Shown: positions 13,770 to 58,490 of the stretch, piece by piece | Numbering within the stretch: the first letter of the stretch is position 1 | How the letters are laid out: each line of letters opens with the position of its first letter | Assembly: GCA_934254585.1 (NCBI GenBank) | Contig: CAKQLF010000001.1 | Coordinates: forward strand, 28,093 to 92,092 | Length of the DNA: 64,000 nucleotides | Direction of reading: 5' to 3' | Source of the DNA: an uncultured Alphaproteobacteria bacterium | Lineage (GTDB): Bacteria; Pseudomonadota; Alphaproteobacteria; RF32; CAG-239 | Translations under genes and position numbers: made by a program | Notes under the pieces: model-generated | Databases searched by the model: none | What the model was told of the DNA's origin: nothing | What the model saw: only the letters and a program-made list of their open reading frames with translations

Positions 13770-15620
13770 TTATTCCATAGCTTCCGGTTTAGCTCGCTTA
13801 CGGGCAATAGGATCCAAAATTCGTTTTCTTAAACGCAATGATTTCGGAGTAACCTCCAAAAGCTCGTCAGCCTGAATATAAGCCAAAGCCTGTTCCAAAC
13901 TCAATTTACGAGGCGGAATCAAATCTATGGCTTCATCTTTGCCGGCGGCGCGGATATTGGTCAATTGCTTAGATTTTGTCGGGTTAACTTCAATATCGTT
14001 ATATTTTGTATGTTCACCGATAATCATACCAACATACACCGGACTATTGTGCTCAACAAACATCGGGCCGCGGTCTTGCAGTTTCCACAAAGAATAAGCA
14101 ATTGCCTGACCGTTTTCGCTGGAAATCATCACCCCGTTGCGACGATCTTCAATTTCACCCTTATACGGCTCAAAAGCATAGAAAATACGGTTCATAACAC
14201 CGGTTCCGCGTGTATCTGTCAAAAATTCCGAATGATAACCAATCAAACCGCGGGAAGGAGCGTGGAAAATCAAACGCACTTTATTACCGACTTGAGACGG
14301 AATCATTTCTACCAATTCCGCACGGCGTTTGCTTAATTTTTCTACCACCGCGCCAGAAAATTCTTCATCTACGTCAACCACAACTTCTTCAACCGGCTCT
14401 AAAAGCTGACCATTTTCATCGCGTTTCATAATAACGCGCGGACGGGAAATTGAAAGTTCAAAGCCTTCGCGACGCATAGTTTCAATCAAAACACCAAGCT
14501 GCAACTCACCGCGACCGGCCACTTCAAAAGTGTCTGAATTATCGGTGCGAGAAATTTTAAGCGCGATATTACCTTCGGCTTCTTTTTCCAAACGTGCCCA
14601 AATCACACGGGATGTAACTTTATCACCTTCCTTGCCGGCCAAAGGCGAATCATTCACAGAAAAAGTCATTGCCAATGTCGGCGGGTCAATCGGCTGAGCT
14701 TTGATAAAATCTTTAACATCAACGTCTAAAGCGCAAATAGTGTCGGCAACCGTGCCTTTAACAATTCCGGCAACAGCAACAATATCTCCGGCGTGAGCCG
14801 AATCCAAAGCCACTCTTTCCAATCCTTTATAGGCCATAATTTTAGTAATTTTAGCCCGCTCTACTTCGCCACGCTCGTTAATAACTTTTACCGCATCGTT
14901 AACCTTAACGCTGCCGCTCTGAATCTTACCGGTCAAAATACGACCGACAAACTTATCAGATTCCAAAGTTGTCGCCAACATTCTAAATGGTTTATCAGGC
15001 TCGCAAACCGGCTCGCTGACATAAGACACAATGGTTTCAAACAGCGGCGTTAAATCTTTATGTTCATCACTAAGCTCGCGAACAGCCCAACCATTGCGGC
15101 CTGAAGCGTATAAAATAGGAAAATCCAATTGTTCATCACTTGCATTCAAGCTGACAAACAAGTCAAAGATTTCATTCAAAACTTCATCAGGGCGAGCGTC
15201 CGGCTTATCGGCTTTATTAATAACAACTATCGGTTTTAAGCCGATTTTTAAAGCTTTTCCCAACACAAATTTCGTTTGCGGCATCGGACCTTCAGAGGAG
15301 TCAACCAACAAAACAACGCCATCAACCATTGACAAAATACGTTCAACTTCACCACCGAAGTCAGCGTGTCCCGGAGTATCTACAATGTTTATATGAGTAC
15401 CGTGCCAGTCAACCGAGGTGCATTTTGAAAGAATTGTAATACCTCTCTCTCTTTCCAATGCGTTGCTATCCATAACACAATCAGCCACTTTTTGATTATC
15501 ACGGAATGTACCGCTTTGCCGCAACAAACCATCAACCAAAGTTGTTTTACCGTGGTCAACGTGGGCAATTATGGCAATATTTCTCATACTCATAAATTTA
15601 TCCTTTTTTAAAATCTCCAC
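13770..15620 (-). CDS. typA: translational GTPase TypA/BipA
   Basis: AHVDHGKTTL, DTPGHADF and NKADK G-motifs, with an EF-G-like C-terminal domain. About 600 aa. Confidence 0.9.
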   Translation of the reverse strand: MEILKKDKFMSMRNIAIIAHVDHGKTTLVDGLLRQSGTFRDNQKVADCVMDSNALERERGITILSKCTSVDWHGTHINIVDTPGHADFGGEVERILSMVDGVVLLVDSSEGPMPQTKFVLGKALKIGLKPIVVINKADKPDARPDEVLNEIFDLFVSLNASDEQLDFPILYASGRNGWAVRELSDEHKDLTPLFETIVSYVSEPVCEPDKPFRMLATTLESDKFVGRILTGKIQSGSVKVNDAVKVINERGEVERAKITKIMAYKGLERVALDSAHAGDIVAVAGIVKGTVADTICALDVDVKDFIKAQPIDPPTLAMTFSVNDSPLAGKEGDKVTSRVIWARLEKEAEGNIALKISRTDNSDTFEVAGRGELQLGVLIETMRREGFELSISRPRVIMKRDENGQLLEPVEEVVVDVDEEFSGAVVEKLSKRRAELVEMIPSQVGNKVRLIFHAPSRGLIGYHSEFLTDTRGTGVMNRIFYAFEPYKGEIEDRRNGVMISSENGQAIAYSLWKLQDRGPMFVEHNSPVYVGMIIGEHTKYNDIEVNPTKSKQLTNIRAAGKDEAIDLIPPRKLSLEQALAYIQADELLEVTPKSLRLRKRILDPIARKRAKPEAME

Positions 15621-15719
15621 AAAAAAGCTACGCGGAAAACCATTCCACGCGCAAAATTTGCCTTACCATAACGCATTTTTTTTAAATTTCAAGAGTTTTT
15701 ACGCTTTAATTTTAAGCAT

Positions 15720-17087
15720 TTAACGATAAAAAATTCTCTCAATATTTTTAATATCCACCGGAGAAACATAAATAATTAATATATCTTCTGCACAAAGCCT
15801 GTATTTTTTAGGATTATATAAATATTCGCCGTTGTGCTCCACCGCCATAACCGCGCTGTTATCAGAAATTTGCAAATCTTCAATATCGCGGTCAATATTG
15901 CTGCTGTCTTCTCCCAAGCGAATTTCCCAAATTTCCCCCATTTCTCGCCCAAGCGCGTAAGCCTCATTAATTCGAGCCCGCCGCAAATATTGCAAAATAC
16001 CGGAAACCGTGATTACCGAACGATCAATCAAAGTATTGTTACGAATATTGTTTGCCAACAGATTATATTCACGCGAATTTATCAATGAAACCGCCTGTGT
16101 ATCTTTGTTTTTTGATGCTAACAACGAAAGTAACAAATTATCCTTATCTTTTTCCGTCACGGCTATGCTGATATCCGACTGCGAGAAACCGACATCTTCC
16201 AATATCTTGTCACTCATCATTTCCCCGACAATTACCGACGCTTTGTTTAATTTTTCCGCTAATTTTCGAGCCTTTTTCACATCATTTTCCACAATGCTGC
16301 AATTTAAAATGTTTTCATCTTCTTCCAGTTGCTTAGCCAAATAATAAGAAATGGCGTTAGCTCCGAATAACACAACTTTTTCATACGGATTATGGTCAAC
16401 ACCGAACAGGCGCATAACTTCTATATTATGTTCCGGCAAACAGGCAATATAAATTAAATCATTCCGCTGTAAATAAATATCCTCATCCTTAGGTAAAATA
16501 CGATGATTTCCGCGCAAAATCATTACTACCGCCGCTGATAATTCCGCCAGTTTATTATTTATATGGCTAAGCGAAAATTTCATAAAAGGAATATCCGTAT
16601 CACGCTGCCGAAAACTAAACACATTTAATTTACCTGAAAAAAACGGATAAACAGCCGTGCTTCCCGGGAGCTTAAACAGTCCTTGCAAAACTTCGGCAAT
16701 TTCAATATCCGGTGTTATCACCAAATCAACCGGCAAACTTTTTTCATTATAAAGCTTATTCCATAACGGGTTCAAAAAATATTGCGAATCCACTCGGGCT
16801 ATTTTACGCGGAACACCGAATAAGGTATATGCCACCTGACAGGCAACCAGATTAACTTCATCATTTTCTGTAACGGCTATCAGCATATCTGCTTTTTTCA
16901 TTTCTACCGCTTCTTGAATATCCGGATTGGAAATTGAGCCTAAAACCGGTTGAATATCATATTCTCTGGCTATTTCATCAAGTTTTTCCGCATCTTCCGC
17001 CACCACAACAATATCGTTATTGCCTAAACTCAGATAACCAACCAAACTTTTTCCGACACTTGAAGCTCCGCCAATCACTATTTTCAT
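15720..17087 (-). CDS. trkA: potassium uptake protein TrkA
   Basis: Two Rossmann NAD-binding domains (GGASSVGKSL, FGANAISYYLA), 455 aa. Confidence 0.8.
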   Translation of the reverse strand: MKIVIGGASSVGKSLVGYLSLGNNDIVVVAEDAEKLDEIAREYDIQPVLGSISNPDIQEAVEMKKADMLIAVTENDEVNLVACQVAYTLFGVPRKIARVDSQYFLNPLWNKLYNEKSLPVDLVITPDIEIAEVLQGLFKLPGSTAVYPFFSGKLNVFSFRQRDTDIPFMKFSLSHINNKLAELSAAVVMILRGNHRILPKDEDIYLQRNDLIYIACLPEHNIEVMRLFGVDHNPYEKVVLFGANAISYYLAKQLEEDENILNCSIVENDVKKARKLAEKLNKASVIVGEMMSDKILEDVGFSQSDISIAVTEKDKDNLLLSLLASKNKDTQAVSLINSREYNLLANNIRNNTLIDRSVITVSGILQYLRRARINEAYALGREMGEIWEIRLGEDSSNIDRDIEDLQISDNSAVMAVEHNGEYLYNPKKYRLCAEDILIIYVSPVDIKNIERIFYR

Positions 17088-32000: not shown

Positions 32001-33959
32001 GGAACATTAAGCTTACCAAGCGGTTCGGGAAGTTATGTTATGCTTTTAGATAAAAGTGCTAAAGCCGAAAATTATGGCACCATAAATGTTAATGGTGAAA
32101 ACAACTATGGTGTTTATATTAAGTCAGGTGAATTCAGCAATAAGAGTATAAGCACCGGCCCAGAACAACCAACTATAAATGTAAAAGGAAATAACAATTA
32201 CGGTATTTTTGCCATAAATGACGCCAAAATTACCAATGAAGGAAATATTAATGTTTCCGGAAACGATAATTACGGTTTATATTCTCAAAGCAGTGAAGAT
32301 ATAACCAATTCGGGAACAATTACCTTAACAGGTTCAAATAACTATGGTATTTATTCTGTTGCTGAAGGAAAAATAATCAACAGCGGCCGCATAAATGTTC
32401 AAGGTTCGGGAAATATTGGAATATACACCTCGCAAGCTAATGTTGAAAATAACGGAACAATTAATGTTTCCAGCGGGTCGACGGGAATAAAAGCGGAAAA
32501 AGCCGGATTAGTTAAAAATAACGGTGTTATCAACGGCAGCGGAACAGATATTGACCAACCAAGCGATGAAACTTCGCAAGCCTCTTTAGCCGCTAAAAAC
32601 TTTTTACAGGTTAAAACTAAAGGTATTATAAAAAACAATGGCCTTATTACCGCCAAAAATTTTAATTTTGACGAATCTAACGATGGAAGCGGACAAATTG
32701 TTGTTGGTAAAAACGGAACATACAAAGCACAATCACTAAGCGGAACTGTTGTTGCTGATGCCGACATTTCTCAAAACGGATTTAACACAGTCTATAGAAA
32801 TGATAATTCCTTTATCGGAAAAGACAATGGTTTAAATATCGTTTCCGGCTCTTATTTGTTTAATGCGCAAAAAGCTCTAAACAGTAATGGTAACACCGAT
32901 GTTGTTATGACAATGAAATCATTTAACGATGTAATAGATAATCAAGAATTTGCTGATTATTTAACTGAAAACTACCAAGCGCGTAAAGGTGAAGAAACAT
33001 TTAATTTGCTAAAAGGAGCAACTACCGCCCAAAGTTTTACAACTATAAAGAATAGAGAATTCGGGTTTAGTATGCTGCCAAACTTAGCAAAGCAGGATTT
33101 AGACATTTTAAACAATGTCAACCGCGCTATAAATGATGATGTTTTGGTTTCAACAACAGAAAACAGCCGCGCTAAAGTTAATGTTCTTACCTATCAGCAA
33201 AAAATAGGCAACAAGCAAGAAGTTTCCGGTTATAAAGATATGGTTAAAGCTGTTTACGGATTTAACGATTATCAAACAGCTGACAAATGGCGAGTTGGAT
33301 TTGGTGCCGCGGCGGCGCGTTCTGACACCAAATTTAACGATAATTCAAAACGTTATAACAATATATTGGAAATATTTACACCCTTAACTTATGTAAATGA
33401 CAATTTCCGCGCTATGACAAAACCTTTAATCGGTTTTGGAAAAGGTCATTATCGTCGCTTTGGCGGTAGCAATATTTATAAGGCCGACTTAACCAACTAT
33501 TATTACGGTATAAACACAGAAGCTCGTAAAACTTATGATTTAGATGCCGCACAGCTTGAACCGACTATCGGGTTTAATGTTACAAATATGCGAATTGACG
33601 GCATAAAGGAAAGCAATAACGGCTTAAAAACTGATGATGACAACGTATTGTCGGCGCAATCGGTTATAGGATTAGATATTAAAAAGGATTTTGAATTAAC
33701 TGAAAATCAAACAATTTATTTAACAGCCGGTGGAAAATATTTCTATGAATTTGGAAATAAATATTCTACACAAGCAACTTTGGGAGATTTAATAAATTCT
33801 TATAAAATAGAAAGTAATCGTTTACAGCGAAACAGCGGTTTATTAACCGTAAAAGCACAATATGAAAATAAAAATTTAGCAATAAGTGCTTCGCTTAATA
33901 AGCCTTTGGAACAAAAGAATAATACTTATTATTTGTTTAACTTAGGATATAAATTTTAA
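29046..33959 (+). CDS. autotransporter-like adhesin (type Va) with beta-helical passenger
   Basis: 1637 aa. Signal peptide (probable start at ATG 29067 after SD gaggg). One ankyrin-like repeat (NGDTGLCIAARRRD...AGANPHH), a hydrophobic Gly-rich segment and a Ser/Gly linker. About 1000 aa of N-N-G-(T/V)-I-N repeats are typical of parallel beta-helix passengers. The C-terminal roughly 300 aa beta-barrel-like region ends ...NLGYKF. Confidence 0.75.
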   Translation: MYKNEGKMFKNKVLTETTGFVTLICVGTLALPTNLKAYYLPPVSFSEMYRLAQSGDVEALRASVRRGLNIDTINQNGDTGLCIAARRRDTYTYNAFRAAGANPHHPCVQRIDYYNNFLISSKAVPITATPREAYGAIGKETYKISSTTWWILGGLAVGGGIAALAMGGGGGGGSSSEKSSESGIGNVIGSSGSTLKTTSGLATNSSELSVGNSNLSEVAGINFNKDVISAAKSLNIALKAENGGQYINTADTTINIGAGGAGLVAVNNSKVINNGYLKSTETDFNASAGMMASNNSEAINNGKGIIDRTGANGIDLKFSGYNENNLIIGMYADTSSKITNNGDIKGSATQAISDPTAENKNNSENSSSSGSTTAGTTSGNGTIVGMETMIINANKDSSGNTIYAINGENGNISLSAGEGISSGTDVKLNIIGMSSFLDNSFLNGSKNIQRAEKSFLENNGNITLSYTGSYSAAAENTLRKGLGGIVGIRADANTTGVNNGNINIKLTDTTSSAANSVDVAAAMQSVHSGNITNKNNIKISTSSTNARITYGMMAVEGDGSVSGLYTENKQTLDNIGTIIMNASNSYAMASFNGGTVVNNGTITIGNQDDSNFGKNTAMYGSGDSFLTTLKNNGTINVYSQNSYAMRNDFSGGNVISNDGTIFISNSAKGSNVFGGNYSKIINNGTIQYKPAASNTSGSGGSSGSSTTGGTVGDNLNLTLNQHVMDTKSPTVSSVTSSGNEQALNNGTIITETSNTSAMSVETSQGSAINNNIITVAANKLKDNGVNAGMYLSADTEKSAKIVNNGQININTSYSVGMGSASSYNSRIENAENGVINLNADKTIGLYASGNSNLFNNGTINVNSDDSIAIFSAGTGTGQNSALISNSIINVKGKNAIIYQINGSAEINQNGRINIDDSVKSTATYYYVNGSLNLKNIDLGIDSGNFVKIGSNGNGTLSIDETTSLSISKQGTIINAENGATSIINKGTLSLPSGSGSYVMLLDKSAKAENYGTINVNGENNYGVYIKSGEFSNKSISTGPEQPTINVKGNNNYGIFAINDAKITNEGNINVSGNDNYGLYSQSSEDITNSGTITLTGSNNYGIYSVAEGKIINSGRINVQGSGNIGIYTSQANVENNGTINVSSGSTGIKAEKAGLVKNNGVINGSGTDIDQPSDETSQASLAAKNFLQVKTKGIIKNNGLITAKNFNFDESNDGSGQIVVGKNGTYKAQSLSGTVVADADISQNGFNTVYRNDNSFIGKDNGLNIVSGSYLFNAQKALNSNGNTDVVMTMKSFNDVIDNQEFADYLTENYQARKGEETFNLLKGATTAQSFTTIKNREFGFSMLPNLAKQDLDILNNVNRAINDDVLVSTTENSRAKVNVLTYQQKIGNKQEVSGYKDMVKAVYGFNDYQTADKWRVGFGAAAARSDTKFNDNSKRYNNILEIFTPLTYVNDNFRAMTKPLIGFGKGHYRRFGGSNIYKADLTNYYYGINTEARKTYDLDAAQLEPTIGFNVTNMRIDGIKESNNGLKTDDDNVLSAQSVIGLDIKKDFELTENQTIYLTAGGKYFYEFGNKYSTQATLGDLINSYKIESNRLQRNSGLLTVKAQYENKNLAISASLNKPLEQKNNTYYLFNLGYKF

Positions 33960-34036
33960 CGATTATATATTTGTTAAGAAGTGTTTGTTATAATCAAGGT
34001 GTTTAATGATTCACCTAATTTTATGAGGAAAGAAAG

Positions 34037-34087
34037 ATGAAAAATAAGCTTAGCAAAGGTCTCTCTCTCTCTCTCTGCAAATCCTAA
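34037..34087 (+). CDS. 16-codon upstream ORF containing a (CT)8 tract
   Basis: SD gagga 7 nt upstream. Encodes MKNKLSKGLSLSLCKS. Speculative as a translated uORF. Confidence 0.2.
   Translation: MKNKLSKGLSLSLCKS
34060..34076. repeat. (TC)8 dinucleotide microsatellite
   Basis: tctctctctctctctct read directly. Only such tract in the window. Confidence 0.9.
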
Positions 34088-34475
34088 ATGTCTGATTAAA
34101 GGCATATTTTCTGCCGCTACAGACGTTTTTGCAAGTTTTTTCAGAAAAAATGACATATTAAAAAATAACAAGCACAGCACGAAACTGGCAGGCGGCACAA
34201 AGCAAGCAATTCTAGCACCAGTCATTATAGGCCCTGTGCCTAGAATCTTGTTGCAACAAGGTACTAACCTAGTCAATAAATTTGCCTTATTATTACATAA
34301 GTGTCGGTTCGCACAAGATTCTCGGGACAAGCCCGAGAATGACGGTAGCTGGAGGTGTTGGCTTAGTATTTGTTACAAGTTATTTAATTACCCCTCACCA
34401 GCAGACAAGTCTGCGACCGATAAGCCATCAAAGGGTTTGGATGTCGTGCGGCAATACGCCGTGCTTTTTGAACGA

Positions 34476-34495
34476 CGTGTACAGAGTAGTACACG
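34476..34495. repeat. palindromic element cgtgtac-N6-gtacacg (copy A)
   Basis: Perfect 7-bp arms. Lies within the conserved direct repeat cgacgtgtaca...agtacacgag. Confidence 0.8.
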
Positions 34496-34588
34496 AGTGA
34501 GAAAAGCGCAAGCAGTGAACGGACAGACAAAACATATTAGAAATCTTCTTCCGCAATGTGCGTCAGATGCGACGGGATTTTTAAGCGA

Positions 34589-34609
34589 CGTGTACAAAAA
34601 AAGTACACG
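34589..34609. repeat. palindromic element cgtgtac-N7-gtacacg (copy B)
   Basis: Same arms as copy A, about 113 bp downstream and 26 nt before the pilin-like GTG. Confidence 0.8.
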
Positions 34610-34634
34610 AGCGCGAAAATTCCTAGCAGATGGC

Positions 34635-35282
34635 GTGCAGTACGGTAGAAGTATGATTGAGATGTTGGGCGTTTTGGCCATCATCGCTGTTTTGAGCGTT
34701 GGCGGTATTGCCGGATATTCTAAGGCAATGGAAAAATTCAAACTTAATAAGGCTATGGATGAATACAGCTATCTTATTTATGGGTTGCTGGAACACTTAG
34801 ATGAAATTAAATATTCCACTAAATCCAGAGACGGAAATGATACTCCTGTTGTGGAATTAGCTAATAATTTGAATTTGGTTCCTCCGACATGGACAATGAT
34901 AGCAAACAATCTTAATGTTAGTCATAAAAATTTATTTGAAGACCCATATAACAATCTTTTATCTATTTACTCAAAAAACGGAAATTTGCGTTTTGATTTT
35001 ATTTTAGGCGGTTCGCAATTTAAGGACGAAGGTTCTTGGATAACTGAAAATTTTTCAACCAAATTCTGTATGGAATTGGTAAACAATGTTGTCAAACCAT
35101 TGCATTCTTCTTTGGAATTTTTATTTTTTTACAGGTCAAAAGGAAACTCATCCACTTTTTATGGTGATAAGAATTGTTCTTCCGGACGCAAATGTTTGAG
35201 TGATATCAGTATAAAAGAAGTGTATGATAATTGTAAACGTTGCTCAAAAAAAGAAGTTTGTTCAGTAACTATAGACTTTTAA
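34635..35282 (+). CDS. type IV pilin-like protein, paralog 1 (class-III-signal-like N-terminus)
   Basis: Track ORF 34236..35282. The start is reassigned to in-frame GTG 34635 because DNA conservation with paralog 2 begins exactly there (gtgcagtNcggNagaagtatgat). N-terminus ..G-RSMIEMLGVLAIIAVLSVGGIAGYSKAMEK has Glu at +5 of the hydrophobic segment. The C-terminal Cys motif CSSGRKCL...CKRC...EVCSV is shared with paralog 3. Confidence 0.55.
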   Translation: MQYGRSMIEMLGVLAIIAVLSVGGIAGYSKAMEKFKLNKAMDEYSYLIYGLLEHLDEIKYSTKSRDGNDTPVVELANNLNLVPPTWTMIANNLNVSHKNLFEDPYNNLLSIYSKNGNLRFDFILGGSQFKDEGSWITENFSTKFCMELVNNVVKPLHSSLEFLFFYRSKGNSSTFYGDKNCSSGRKCLSDISIKEVYDNCKRCSKKEVCSVTIDF

Positions 35283-35394
35283 ATTGTATATAATAGATAT
35301 CCACCAGTAATGATGAACTTCTTCCTTAAAGGTGGGTTTCCACTTTCTGGGGTACAGTTCAAAATCGGGTGATTTCTGTAACGAATGTATTAAA

Positions 35395-35424
35395 AGCTCG
35401 TGTAACACTGAATTTACACGAGCT
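35395..35424. terminator. bidirectional hairpin terminator; also third copy of cgtgta...tacacgag palindrome family
   Basis: agctcgtgtaa-cactgaat-ttacacgagct, then ttcattttt on plus and T-rich on minus. Between convergent pilin-like gene and rho. Confidence 0.6.
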
Positions 35425-35445
35425 TTCATTTTTATCATTCAAACT

Positions 35446-36699
35446 TTAAGAATTCATATTTTGGAAAAAGTCAGCATTATTTTTAGTTTGACGAAGTTTA
35501 TCCAATAAAAATTCCATACCGTCAGTCATACCCATTTGCATAAGCACACGGCGCAAAACCCACATTTTGGTCAATGTAGCCCTATCAACCAACATTTCTT
35601 CCTTACGGGTGCCGGAACGAGTGATATCAATGGTAGGGAACAATCGTTTATCGGTTAATTTTCTATCCAAAATTATTTCCGAATTACCTGTTCCTTTAAA
35701 TTCTTCAAAAATAACTTCGTCCATACGCGAACCGGTATCAATCAATGCTGTGGCAATAATGGTTAAAGAACCGCCTTCTTCCACATTTCGAGCCGCACCT
35801 AAAAGACGCTTAGGACGTTGCAGAGCGTTGGCATCAACACCACCTGTTAAAACCTTACCAGATGATGGAACAACCGCGTTATACGCTCTTCCTAGACGAG
35901 TAATTGAATCTAAAAGAATTACAACATCTTTTTTATTTTCAACCAAACGCTTAGCTTTTTCAATACACATTTCCGCAACTTGAACGTGTCGTGTTGATGG
36001 TTCGTCAAAAGTTGAAGAAATAACTTCGCCTTTAACCGAACGTGTCATATCCGTAACTTCTTCCGGACGCTCATCAATCAACAACACCATTAAATATACT
36101 TCAGGGTGATTAGTGGAAATGGCGTGGGCTATATTTTGCAGCATCACGGTTTTACCGGTGCGCGGCGGTGCCACAATCAAACCGCGCTGCCCTTTGCCTT
36201 GCGGAGCTATCAAATCAATAACGCGTGTTGTATAATCCTTATCCTTGCATATAATGTCAAAATTAAGCTTTTCTGTCGGATATAACGGAGTTAAATTATC
36301 AAAATTCACACGCAATTTAGATTTTTCAGGGTCATCAAAATTAATGGCATTAACCTTGGTTAAGGCAAAATAGCGTTCATTATCTTTTGGCGCGCGAATT
36401 TCACCTTCCACAGTGTCCCCCGTGCGTAATCCATATTTTTTAACCTGAGCCGGAGAAACGTATATATCATCAGGACTGGCTAAATAATTTGATTTTGAAG
36501 AACGTAAAAAACCAAACCCGTCTTGCAAAACTTCTATTACTCCGTCACCGCAAATAACCGTGTCTACTTCTGACAGTTTTTTCATTATGGCGAATATTAA
36601 ATCTTGAACACGCATAGAAGATGCGTCTTCAACTCCCAAATCTTCTGCTTGAGTTAACAACTCAGTCGGAGATTTCTCCTTTAATTCTTTTAAATGCAT
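35446..36699 (-). CDS. rho: transcription termination factor Rho
   Basis: 417 aa. N-terminal RNA-binding domain, Walker A GKT and RecA-like core. Confidence 0.95.
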
Positions 36700-48766: not shown

Positions 48767-48997
48767 AAGAAAAAATAAAGGAGAATCAAAGTGTTAGAAA
48801 ATGGCAAAATGGGGCTTTTAAGACGGGTTTTTGAGGTGATTTTTGGGCACAATGTCATTAATCGGCATTTTTTCAAGGTTATTAGTGAGATTTTGGGTAC
48901 CATTCGCGGGCTCCGACCTGCGAATCTGGATTGCCGGATTACGTCTGGCAATGACAGTAAGGTGGAGTGCGTCACGTTCGGCAATGACTATAGAGTT

Positions 48998-49636
48998 GTG
49001 CAGTCCGGAAGAAGTATGATAGAAATGCTCGGCGTTTTGGCTATAATTGCGGTTCTTTCCGTTGGCGGAATTGCCGGATATTCCAAGGCCTTAATGAAAT
49101 GGAAATCAAATGTTCAAAAAAATATGTTGGCAGAATTGTTAACTAATATGATAAAAATTAGACCTAATCTCGATAAAAAATCTACATCATTTGATAACAT
49201 AACCTATGTTTTTGAGGCTATGGGAGCATTACCGGAAGGAATAACTTATAAAAATAATTATATGTATGATAAAGAAGATAATTTGATTTGGATTGATTAT
49301 GGTTTATCGTCGTGGACTAATGAAGATGGTTCCATTGGCACGATGTTTGCTTATGTTTTACGTTTTAATTATAAAATAGGTACTGGTAATCTAACGGTTC
49401 CGGCTAAGGATTTTTGCTTGAATTTGCTTGAGGCTGCTAAAACTATTGCGGAAGAGGTTGTTTGTGTAAAAACAAATTATAGTGATTCTTCCAGTTGGAA
49501 TGGTTCAGGTCAAAATGTAATGTATACAAAAAGGTCTTTAGAAACGGCAACAATGGCAGATATGCAACAGAAATGCAATATGGTAATTAAAGAAGAGGGC
49601 GGAGTTCGTTTTTCATTAATGCTAAATCCTTATTAA
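48998..49636 (+). CDS. type IV pilin-like protein, paralog 2
   Basis: Track ORF 48791..49636. Start reassigned to in-frame GTG 48998 (MQSG-RSMIEMLGVLAIIAVLSVGGIAGYSKALMK). The C-terminal domain is diverged (3 Cys) and not alignable by eye with paralogs 1 and 3. Confidence 0.5.
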   Translation: MQSGRSMIEMLGVLAIIAVLSVGGIAGYSKALMKWKSNVQKNMLAELLTNMIKIRPNLDKKSTSFDNITYVFEAMGALPEGITYKNNYMYDKEDNLIWIDYGLSSWTNEDGSIGTMFAYVLRFNYKIGTGNLTVPAKDFCLNLLEAAKTIAEEVVCVKTNYSDSSSWNGSGQNVMYTKRSLETATMADMQQKCNMVIKEEGGVRFSLMLNPY

Positions 49637-58254: not shown

Positions 58255-58467
58255 GAGTTGGTTGTAACCGGCTTAGGGCGTCAGAAACCCTTTATTCAGA
58301 TATACAGTCGTTAAGCATAAGCGACTTTAAATATGTATGCCGACTTCTGCTCTTTTGGACGGATGTCGGTTTTATAAGGCTATAAGCACGAAAATGCCGA
58401 GCCGTTTTTTGTATATCTGATACGGTTTCTGAACATCCGCCCGCCAACAGGTGGGTTTTGTTTTTTT
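58255..58467 (+). ncRNA. candidate structured RNA (sRNA or cis-regulatory leader/attenuator) ending in an intrinsic terminator
   Basis: A long imperfect inverted repeat, tcagaaaccctttattcagatatac (58281-305) paired with gtatatctgatacggtttctga (58411-432), encloses about 105 nt with an internal stem ccgac...gtcgg. The terminator cccgcc-aaca-ggtggg plus U-run lies at 58440-67. Confidence 0.35.
58440..58467 (+). terminator. rho-independent terminator/attenuator 24 nt upstream of pilin-like paralog 3
   Basis: Stem cccgcc/ggtggg (one G-U pair) followed by ttttgttttttt. Confidence 0.7.
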
Positions 58468-58490
58468 ATAATTATACAGGTGTTTAGAAT

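Follow-up and report, generated by a model that had tools for sequence, protein, structure and literature searches.

Three copies of one palindrome lie around a pilin-like gene of an uncultured gut alphaproteobacterium, and the question raised by this locus is what the palindromes are and where they stand relative to the gene. The window analysed here is a stretch of 64,000 nucleotides (contig CAKQLF010000001.1, positions 28,093–92,092; coordinates below are positions within this window) with a G+C content of 37%. A first-pass annotation of the locus had listed operator sites, RNA hairpins, mobile repeats and recombination targets as possible readings; its observation was confirmed and its interpretation was borne out in part. 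A search of the 64-kb window with CGTGTA-N(5–10)-TACACG returned three matches (34476–34495, 34589–34609 and 35399–35420), which reproduced the original coordinates. None of 100 dinucleotide-preserving shuffles contained any match, and tolerating one mismatch per arm added no further site in the window, so that the palindrome does occur three times here and nowhere else. Copies 1 and 2 were embedded in ~62-nt direct repeats (34454–34515 and 34567–34629; ~80% identity, spacing 113–114 nt), and blastn of the window revealed no further copy of the element that contains them. Taken as a whole, the explanation that we consider likely is that the first two palindromes are repetitive extragenic palindromic (REP)-like hairpins carried in frame within the leader of a phase-variable pilin gene, the third being a terminator.

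The two upstream palindromes had been placed just before the start codon. The best-supported start, however, is an ATG at position 34037, ~600 nt upstream, and therefore the palindromes lie inside the reading frame (all features of the gene are on the + strand). This ATG stands 4 nt after a strong Shine-Dalgarno (SD) sequence, GAGGAAAG (34025–34032), and opens a proposed short leader, MKNKLSKG (34037–34060), that takes the form MKNK(L/Q)(S/F)KG in all related loci; the start string GAGGAAAGAAA(G/A)ATGAAAAATAAGC was kept in 97 distinct loci. A candidate extended −10-like promoter element, TGTTATAAT (33986–33994), lies ~45 nt 5' of the ATG by consensus match only, with TGGTATAGAAT, TGGTGTAGAAT or TGGTGTAAAAT occupying that position in related species. 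No sigma-54 promoter was found upstream, and a sigma-70 scan of 33900–35500 gave no excess of sites over shuffles. Directly after codon 8 comes a (CT)8 tract (34061–34076), read here as a phase-variation tract that is OFF in the window: the ATG frame ends after 16 codons, at the stop (34085–34087) of the OFF-phase peptide MKNKLSKGLSLSLCKS. The pilin frame, +1 relative to the ATG, was stop-free for 201 codons (34041–34643) across both hairpin elements described below (U1 and U2), up to a prepilin-type cleavage motif, G|RSMIEML (G codon 34644–34646), which is followed by a 211-aa type IVb-pilin-like mature domain and its stop (34644–35282 in all). Across the leader stretch the pilin frame had 0 stops, as against 11 and 16 for its two alternatives. 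None of 20,000 shuffles was open over the whole leader, and 2 of 20,000 were open over the 128 codons upstream of U1. This openness is not intrinsic to the hairpin element, because copies of the element outside pilin genes were stop-free in a given frame in only 20–28% of cases (n = 79). Judging from these sequence features, the U1/U2 region is probably the leader-coding part of the pilin-like gene and not a region upstream of it.

Comparison with related loci tied the reading frame to the number of CT repeats. Since (CT)8 is out of frame, (CT)6 and (CT)9 were predicted to be in frame, and the same locus in another sample (L120) bore this out, with (CT)6 giving a 388-aa open reading frame (ORF) from the ATG that was also called by the collection's own gene caller. 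Two loci of the same species differed in both tract and leader: L001 had (CT)7, a ~200-bp deletion and 132 open codons, and L002 had (CT)8, an in-frame 165-nt insertion and 256 open codons. In five loci of other species, SD-ATG-MKNK(L/Q)(S/F)KG-(CT)7/8 led into a long open frame in the same way. When metagenomes were scanned for the conserved start, 83 stretches were returned, and 97 distinct loci were analysed in all, in which the CT number was 4 (1 locus), 5 (4 loci), 6 (7 loci), 7 (53 loci) or 8 (22 loci). Among the 54 loci that were complete to the pilin N-terminus, six repeats placed the ATG in frame (5/5), seven gave frame +2 (36/36) and eight gave frame +1 (12/13). Frame was thus predicted by CT number in 53 of 54 loci, the leader was stop-free in 53 of 54, its length ranged from 66 to 315 codons (median 154), and 18 of the 54 leaders carried one or two hairpin tips. 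The tract therefore has the marks of a contingency locus, namely a position in the 5' coding region and a repeat-number polymorphism that sets the frame. At least ~24 contigs of assembly ERZ1034855 carried the conserved start, all at 8.7–11.7x coverage, and many loci lay at contig ends, which implies a large gene family within one genome that breaks assemblies. At such loci gene callers chose arbitrary internal GTG starts or predicted 240–400-aa proteins, and many homologues were extended through the repeats to 240–357 aa; an exact look-up of the 348-aa GTG-started ORF of the window found no record.

The leader frame also contains, at 34197–34367, a REP-like module with inverted 55-nt arms and a small hairpin (TTCTCGGG..CCCGAGAA), and the translated signature of this module, PRIL..NLVNKFALLLHKC..DKPEND, recurs in the leaders of homologues. 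The leader repeats were inserted in frame and without stops, the property that characterises Rickettsia palindromic elements (RPEs). Other small palindromic repeat families shared the same leaders, always in frame (34197–34367; the L002 insertion), with translations that read LLRR(Y/C)TPRND, which we take to resemble RPE-type peptides, or HKILGTGPSMTG and YPSPDAKASPSP.

Each of the two upstream palindromes forms the conserved apical stem of one of two tandem ~110-nt hairpin repeats, U1 (34426–34539) and U2 (34540–34655), both on the + strand. Their tips are CGACGTGTACAGAGTAGTACACGAG (34473–34497) and CGACGTGTACAAAAAAAGTACACGAG (34586–34611), and the covariance model of the family (R1, see below) scored them at 70.4 bits (E = 2e-14) and 98.2 bits (E = 3e-21), respectively. 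The RNA of 34440–34660 folded into two long hairpins (dG, the folding free energy, −84.4 kcal/mol; z = −7.1), with the 3' arm of U2 holding GTG 34635, the G-R-S codons and ATG 34653. In species without the CT module, the element lay right after a first G-R-S and closed with a second, as in L091 (MYNNFEKGRS[35 codons]SG|KSMIEML) and L080 (MRENGRS[...]CG|RSMVEML), the outer stem being formed by the 5' end of the element paired with the second G-R-S codons. In L091 a compensatory change in this stem, from CTTCTTCC/GGAAGAAG to CTTTTTCC/GGAAAAAG, came alongside an R-to-K change. The tip (G/A)TGTACAAAAA translates as Met/Val-Tyr-Lys-Lys/Asn, which is the canonical short leader MYKN.. of hairpin-free family members, and the tip GTG was in the pilin frame in 10 of 10 copies that lay 58 nt from the pilin N-terminus. 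The tip GTG was considered as a true start (leader MYKKSTRARK...) and set aside, as it could not be told apart from hairpin geometry. In L123, U1 was joined straight onto a different pilin, and on that ground we take U1 to be a former pilin-proximal hairpin that is now stacked on U2.

The protein encoded behind these hairpins has the features of a type IV (IVb-like) pilin: its N-terminus combines Gly(−1) and Glu(+5) with a helix of hydrophobic character (G|RSMIEMLGVLAIIAVLSVGG), its structure model contains a 47-residue helix, and its fold is that of a pilin. Three pilin-like paralogues occur in the window and have the N-terminus G|RSMIEMLGVLAIIAVLSVGGIAGYSKA in common.

The third palindrome does not belong to the hairpin family: placed between rho and the pilin gene, it serves as an ordinary terminator for both directions. 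Its 13-bp perfect stem and 8-nt loop (35393–35426) have an A-run before them and a T-run, CATTTTTATC, after them, in agreement with the earlier suggestion that this copy doubles as a bidirectional terminator stem, and the hairpin lies 20 nt from the stop codon of the convergent neighbour rho (35446–36699, − strand; Pfam Rho_N, Rho_RNA_bind and ATP-synt_ab). What copy 3 has in common with copies 1 and 2 is CGTGTA/TACACGAG alone; model R1 gave it 16.6 bits (E = 0.36), as against 17.2 bits for an unrelated terminator (25304–25345), and the claim that three copies of one element bracket the gene is not supported, as the model does not recognise this one. The terminator was kept in all strains whatever their leader module, save for a single substitution in L005. 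Identical Rho sequences stood on contigs from Hadza and other gut samples, and the sources of homologues were labelled Alphaproteobacteria.

U1 and U2 belong to a REP-like family that is dispersed in alphaproteobacterial chromosomes. One genome per species was scanned with CGACGTGTACA-N5-8-TACACGAG (19 specified bases; ~17 chance matches by our estimate), and counts of exact-tip copies are taken from the matches listed, a lower bound on family size. More than 112 stretches, as a minimum, had the exact tip and came mostly from Alphaproteobacteria metagenome-assembled genomes (MAGs); the listed hosts were mainly uncultured gut and rumen Alphaproteobacteria, together with Rhizomicrobium, Asticcacaulis, Paracaedibacteraceae and Rickettsiales. 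Single MAGs had near-identical copies on several contigs (e.g. L006, L011 and L026 of CAKQUE01). Viral contigs gave 0 matches, a plasmid collection had no match to U1+U2 or to a high-GC copy, and Rfam had no match, at gathering or E-value thresholds, for the window region or for eight family loci. The family was not described in anything that general literature searches returned, and a search with the motif as a literal string returned primers and shRNAs only. Exact tips were also seen in a few Betaproteobacteria, by relatedness or by chance (L045, 325–348, Aquitalea; L014 and L049, Methylotenera-like), and one betaproteobacterial match lay within a 16S-23S spacer, between tRNA-Ile and tRNA-Ala. 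Two other identities for the motif were rejected: a DNA-uptake sequence, as lone half-sites were not over-represented (CGTGTAC, 2 vs. 2.3 expected; GTGTAC, 2 vs. 13), and GTAC avoidance or methylation, as GTAC had an observed/expected ratio of 0.89.

Among the matches listed, 109 of 112 exact-tip copies had hairpin arms of ~41 and ~39 nt, which gives an element of ~105 nt. The family tip is C-GA-CGTGTAC / loop / GTACACG-A-G with a loop of 4–9 nt; tip and internal loops were conserved across orders, and stem sequences varied between genomes with their complementarity kept. RNAalifold on a plain MAFFT alignment recovered the tip only and was replaced by a consensus structure built from per-sequence folds. 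With this structure on an alignment of 60 sequences, tested on the sequences from which it was derived and with a tip that the search pattern had fixed, 73.7% of cells were paired (55.5% in shuffles), 580 cells were changed on both sides (237 in shuffles; 0 of 500 shuffles reached 580) and the covariation score was 0.42 (0.15 in shuffles; 0.14–0.20 with slid partners). Model R1 gave 110 hits over 100 loci and also picked compensatory variant tips (CATGTAC/GTACATG and CGTTTAC/GTAAATG). Of the readings in the first-pass annotation, those of RNA hairpins and of REP/MITE-like elements were supported.

Neighbours were analysed with copies oriented as CGACG...CACGAG. In ~45 of 97 copies, the right end of the hairpin and a stop codon on the opposite strand were −3 to +5 nt apart, and the right neighbours were convergent gene ends in 58 of ~70 informative copies; left neighbours were variable, and the genes preceding the element had varied housekeeping roles (among them a cytidylyltransferase, thyA, pnp and mutL). 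One subfamily had a canonical terminator beyond the element on the gene's strand, which therefore places the element in the 3' untranslated region (UTR). In the reverse orientation, the element sat 1–6 nt before the start of typA/bipA (six loci) or yidC (one locus) with the SD in its 3' arm, and the bipA loci had one to three tandem copies between a conserved promoter, TTGAAA-N17-TATGGT, and the start. The bipA gene of the window (13770–15620, − strand) has the same promoter without the element; its 5' region (15594–15720, − strand) shows a small hairpin and T6 where relatives with 81–85% identical BipA carry the element. An extragenic location at gene 3' ends thus fits most of the family but not U1 and U2, given their position within a frame free of stops. 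An association of the motif with pilin-like loci had been named as something to check; among the matches listed, specificity for pilins found no support, as only 20 of 122 exact copies preceded a pilin N-terminus, in most cases at a constant distance of +58 or +66 nt. Specificity for pilins and the count of three copies were therefore errors in how the locus was first framed, and its position is most likely a third, the palindromes lying within a phase-variable frame and not upstream of it.

These observations suggest the following mechanism. Translation would start at the SD-ATG of 34037 (MKNKLSKG), run directly into (CT)n and continue through a leader of ~200 codons with U1 and U2 in frame. 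Slipped-strand changes in the tract would put (CT)6, and by prediction also 9, in frame and (CT)7 and (CT)8 out of frame, which would make the window allele OFF; the sequence evidence argues strongly for both steps. In the ON phase, the product would bear a leader of translated palindromic repeats, and since this long leader terminates at a prepilin-type site, G|RSMIE, it would be cleaved off. In the OFF phase, the U2 hairpin may bury the internal GTG and ATG and so keep OFF tight, and ribosomes arriving from the ATG in the ON phase may unwind U2. As DNA, the conserved N-terminal codons together with the repeat modules could serve as homology junctions for swapping leader modules and whole pilin bodies. 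The gating by hairpins and the junction roles are steps that we only infer.

Several points weigh against this explanation. Known prepilin leaders are 5–30 aa long, far below the ~200 aa here, and removal of such a leader by prepilin peptidase at G|RSMIE is a prediction from sequence of what would happen; the in-frame GTG 34635 could start a conventional short leader, MQYG|RS. The pilin domain scored below cut-off with Pfam N_methyl (14.5 bits vs. 21.2) and TIGR02532 (15.8 bits vs. 16.3), and Foldseek gave no significant PDB match. Just 5 of 54 loci were ON, and all sequences are metagenome consensus assemblies. Because the search pattern demanded an exact tip, conservation of the tip was in part imposed. 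Of 58 copies, 46 were more stable as the + strand, yet G-U pairs numbered 80 on the + strand and 115 on the − strand. The 8-nt arms that copy 3 shares with the family are improbable by chance (estimated at ~0.01 or less), and a distant relationship is therefore possible. Finally, the hairpins themselves may be tolerated passengers.

Developed in full, that last point becomes a rival in which U1 and U2 are selfish or neutral insertions, tolerated because the leader is removed, of which only in-frame, stop-free ones survive. We regard this as possible, somewhat short of an even chance, and it is compatible with all of the phase-variable leader explanation apart from the roles in gating and as junctions. 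The same leaders are host to several unrelated families of repeats, and the hairpin is present in only 18 of 54; L120 is ON without a hairpin, and the bipA gene of the window lacks the element found in relatives. Neutral passengers do not account for outer stems that are matched to local G-R-S codons and maintained by compensatory change, nor for the conservation of tip and internal loops across orders. A bolder proposal gives the conserved part a function: the ~65-nt hairpin core (tip plus purine-rich internal loops) would be a nucleic-acid module that is bound by a conserved alphaproteobacterial factor at gene boundaries (stop codons and the ribosome-binding sites of bipA, yidC and pilin genes), gating pilin translation and giving portable homology for shuffling bodies onto expression sites. 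We hold this proposal to be doubtful.

If the gene instead started at GTG 34635 (MQYG|RS), U1 and U2 would be 5'-UTR hairpins, ATG-(CT)n would be an unrelated short ORF, and U2 might hide the start codon as a thermometer, an RNase III substrate or a protein-controlled translational switch. This would suit the position of GTG 34635 and the first six codons inside the 3' arm of U2, the bipA 5' UTR of relatives, where the same element stands between promoter and start with the SD in its 3' arm, and the compensatory change in L091. It leaves unexplained a 201-codon frame that no shuffle reproduced, that was preserved through large indels and that recurs in 53 of 54 loci, as well as the relation of CT number to frame and the 388-aa (CT)6 allele. 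In addition, L077 and L080 have no in-frame start codon near the cleavage site, and GTG 34635 has no SD in front of it. On balance we consider a 5'-UTR location unlikely and return to U1 and U2 as parts of a translated leader.

Strain comparisons bore on the suggestion that the palindromes are recombination targets bracketing the gene. Homology between strains broke at 34141, at 34418/34419 (8 nt before U1), at 34531 (the end of U1) and at 34634/34635. L004 and L120 had a mature pilin 99.5% identical to that of the window, with the leader segment 34419–34634 swapped for a REP-type module like that of paralogue 2. L118, L119 and L123 shared the 5' module up to 34141, 34418 and 34531, respectively, and then continued into other pilin-like bodies and other downstream genes. 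The presence of one 5' module on different pilin bodies and downstream genes implies rearrangements between pilin loci, and the fact that downstream genes change along with the pilin body points to homologous exchange between paralogous loci. In these three loci, compared with window positions 33856–34531, the promoter/ATG/(CT)n module followed an autotransporter gene, and the differing downstream genes were a gpsA-like gene, thioredoxin plus UvrD/AddA-like genes, and a gene with a tRNA-synthetase anticodon-binding domain. Several contigs terminated in the leader region. Recombination targets in the broad sense therefore find support in the homology breaks at 34418/34419, 34531 and 34634/34635, and a three-copy bracket around the gene does not. 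The predicted 113-bp deletion or duplication between the upstream repeats was not seen, no such indel being present between U1 and U2 in the contigs that cover both.

Site-specific recombination like that of integrons, shufflons or Xer sites, with the three palindromes bracketing a pilin cassette for inversion or excision, is a narrower version of the same idea and in our view very unlikely. Palindromic arms with a 6–10-nt centre do resemble the core sites of tyrosine recombinases, and pilin body and leader modules do vary between strains. Set against this, the downstream copy is a standard terminator that stays with rho even in module-swapped strains, no inverted or excised allele was seen among the strains compared, breakpoints fell at module edges and within conserved N-terminal codons rather than at palindrome centres, and the switching of downstream genes with the pilin body points to the homologous exchange described above. 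Least credible of all is an operator role, in which a dimeric DNA-binding protein would regulate the pilin gene through the palindromes: CGTGTAC/GTACACG is a perfect dyad and two copies lie near the 5' end of the gene, but family members differ in the spacing of their half-sites (4 to 9 nt), compensatory arm changes keep pairing and not sequence, the tips are borne on covarying 35-bp stems, and ~80% of copies lie at the 3' ends of unrelated housekeeping genes.

With U1 and U2 taken as REP-like hairpins inside a phase-variable leader, the locus can be compared to known systems. The family resembles the REP/BIME/REPIN repeats of Gammaproteobacteria in being made of dispersed hairpins, several per genome, mostly located just 3' of genes. 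It differs in its length (~105 nt and not 35 nt), in its conserved part (an apical stem with purine-rich internal loops) and in that the window copies lie within an ORF. Hallmarks of REP/REPIN elements are the tetranucleotide GTAG/CTAC, which is conserved, and a RAYT (Y1) transposase that goes with it. In the family, the 3' arm repeatedly shows the motif G(T/C)A(G/T); no RAYT transposase was identified here, and no search for RAYT genes was made. Many E. coli REPs are described as lying ≤15 nt from a stop codon and stalling ribosomes there (PMC12306157, citing Liang et al. 2015). The family did not have the properties of MITEs (transposable elements of the miniature inverted-repeat type), namely terminal inverted repeats plus a target-site duplication: its centre was conserved and its outer stems differed between subfamilies, the flanking G-R-S codon pairs differed in sequence (e.g. 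GGTAGAAGT vs. GGCCGGTCT in L080), and bipA, the sole locus that allowed an empty-site comparison, showed no clear target-site duplication.

Within Alphaproteobacteria, palindromic elements in protein-coding genes of Rickettsia were reportedly described by Ogata et al. in 2000. In their mode of insertion the leader repeats resemble these RPEs as translated palindromic repeats inserted in frame; they differ in that they gather in a leader that would be cleaved off and not in mature proteins, and the hairpin family is mainly extragenic. The Delihas review describes RPEs as inserted in frame in the protein genes of an alphaproteobacterium and translated, and describes the CIR repeats of Caulobacter and Brucella as ~110-bp hairpins that are conserved between alphaproteobacterial species, with a motif exposed at the loop (PMC2229807). 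CIR are defined by a conserved CcrM site (GANTC) and have two linker-joined arms, whereas no GANTC occurred in U1, U2 or the tips and loops of the family.

Phase variation by a dinucleotide tract is known from H. pylori, where (CT)n in the 5' signal-coding region of oipA, sabA and hopZ shifts the frame by slipped-strand mispairing (PMC10564699). Both systems involve a multigene family of surface proteins; here the genes are pilin-like, and the tract follows an 8-codon leader and precedes 66–315 repeat-derived codons that stand before the mature protein. As in type IVb pilins (TcpA, CofA and PilS) and Neisseria pilE/pilS, the N-terminal helix is conserved and the C-terminal domain variable, and exchange via a conserved 5' sequence recalls pilin antigenic variation. 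Unlike in type IVb pilins, residue +1 here is Arg, and compared with known leaders the one here is longer by a factor of up to ~10. In contrast to Neisseria pilE/pilS, whole genes and downstream flanks differ between strains, and no silent cassettes were shown.

For annotation, SD-ATG-(CT)n-leader-pilin appears to be the actual gene unit. Uncultured Alphaproteobacteria of the human gut, to judge from these data, carry a large family of type IVb-like pilin genes, each phase-variable independently of the others. Most members are OFF and few ON, the pattern that marks evasion of immunity or of phages, or the switching of adhesins. Leaders built of repeats would widen the known tolerance of prepilin processing and would be the second clear case, after the RPEs of Rickettsia, of palindromic repeats within coding sequence. 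The hairpin family, with its tip conserved class-wide, covarying stems, precise juxtaposition to stop codons and absence from Rfam, is a candidate REP-like element with a defined partner. Should the doubtful core-module proposal prove true, it would, together with repeat-encoded prepilin leaders of 70–300 aa, constitute an undescribed route to surface-organelle diversity in an uncultured gut lineage.

The other two pilin-like genes of the window differ in their 5' regions. Paralogue 2 (48791–49636) has an SD (AAAGGAG) and a GTG at 48791, followed by 73–76 stop-free REP-type codons (..ANLDCRITSGNDSKVECVTFGNDY..) and then G|RSMIEML, without a CT tract. Upstream of paralogue 3, a structured segment of ~190 nt (58255–58470; dG −78 kcal/mol, z = −5.9) ends in a terminator-like hairpin and T-run and had a sub-threshold Rfam match to sRNA-Xcc1 (26.4 bits vs. 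a cut-off of 53; E = 0.012); a very similar counterpart of this segment precedes a pilin gene in L091. In the window as a whole, GATC (11 observed, 151 expected) and CATG (12 observed, 148 expected) were depleted ~13-fold, which suggests strong restriction avoidance, and CTAG (0.28) and TCGA (0.49) were likewise low.

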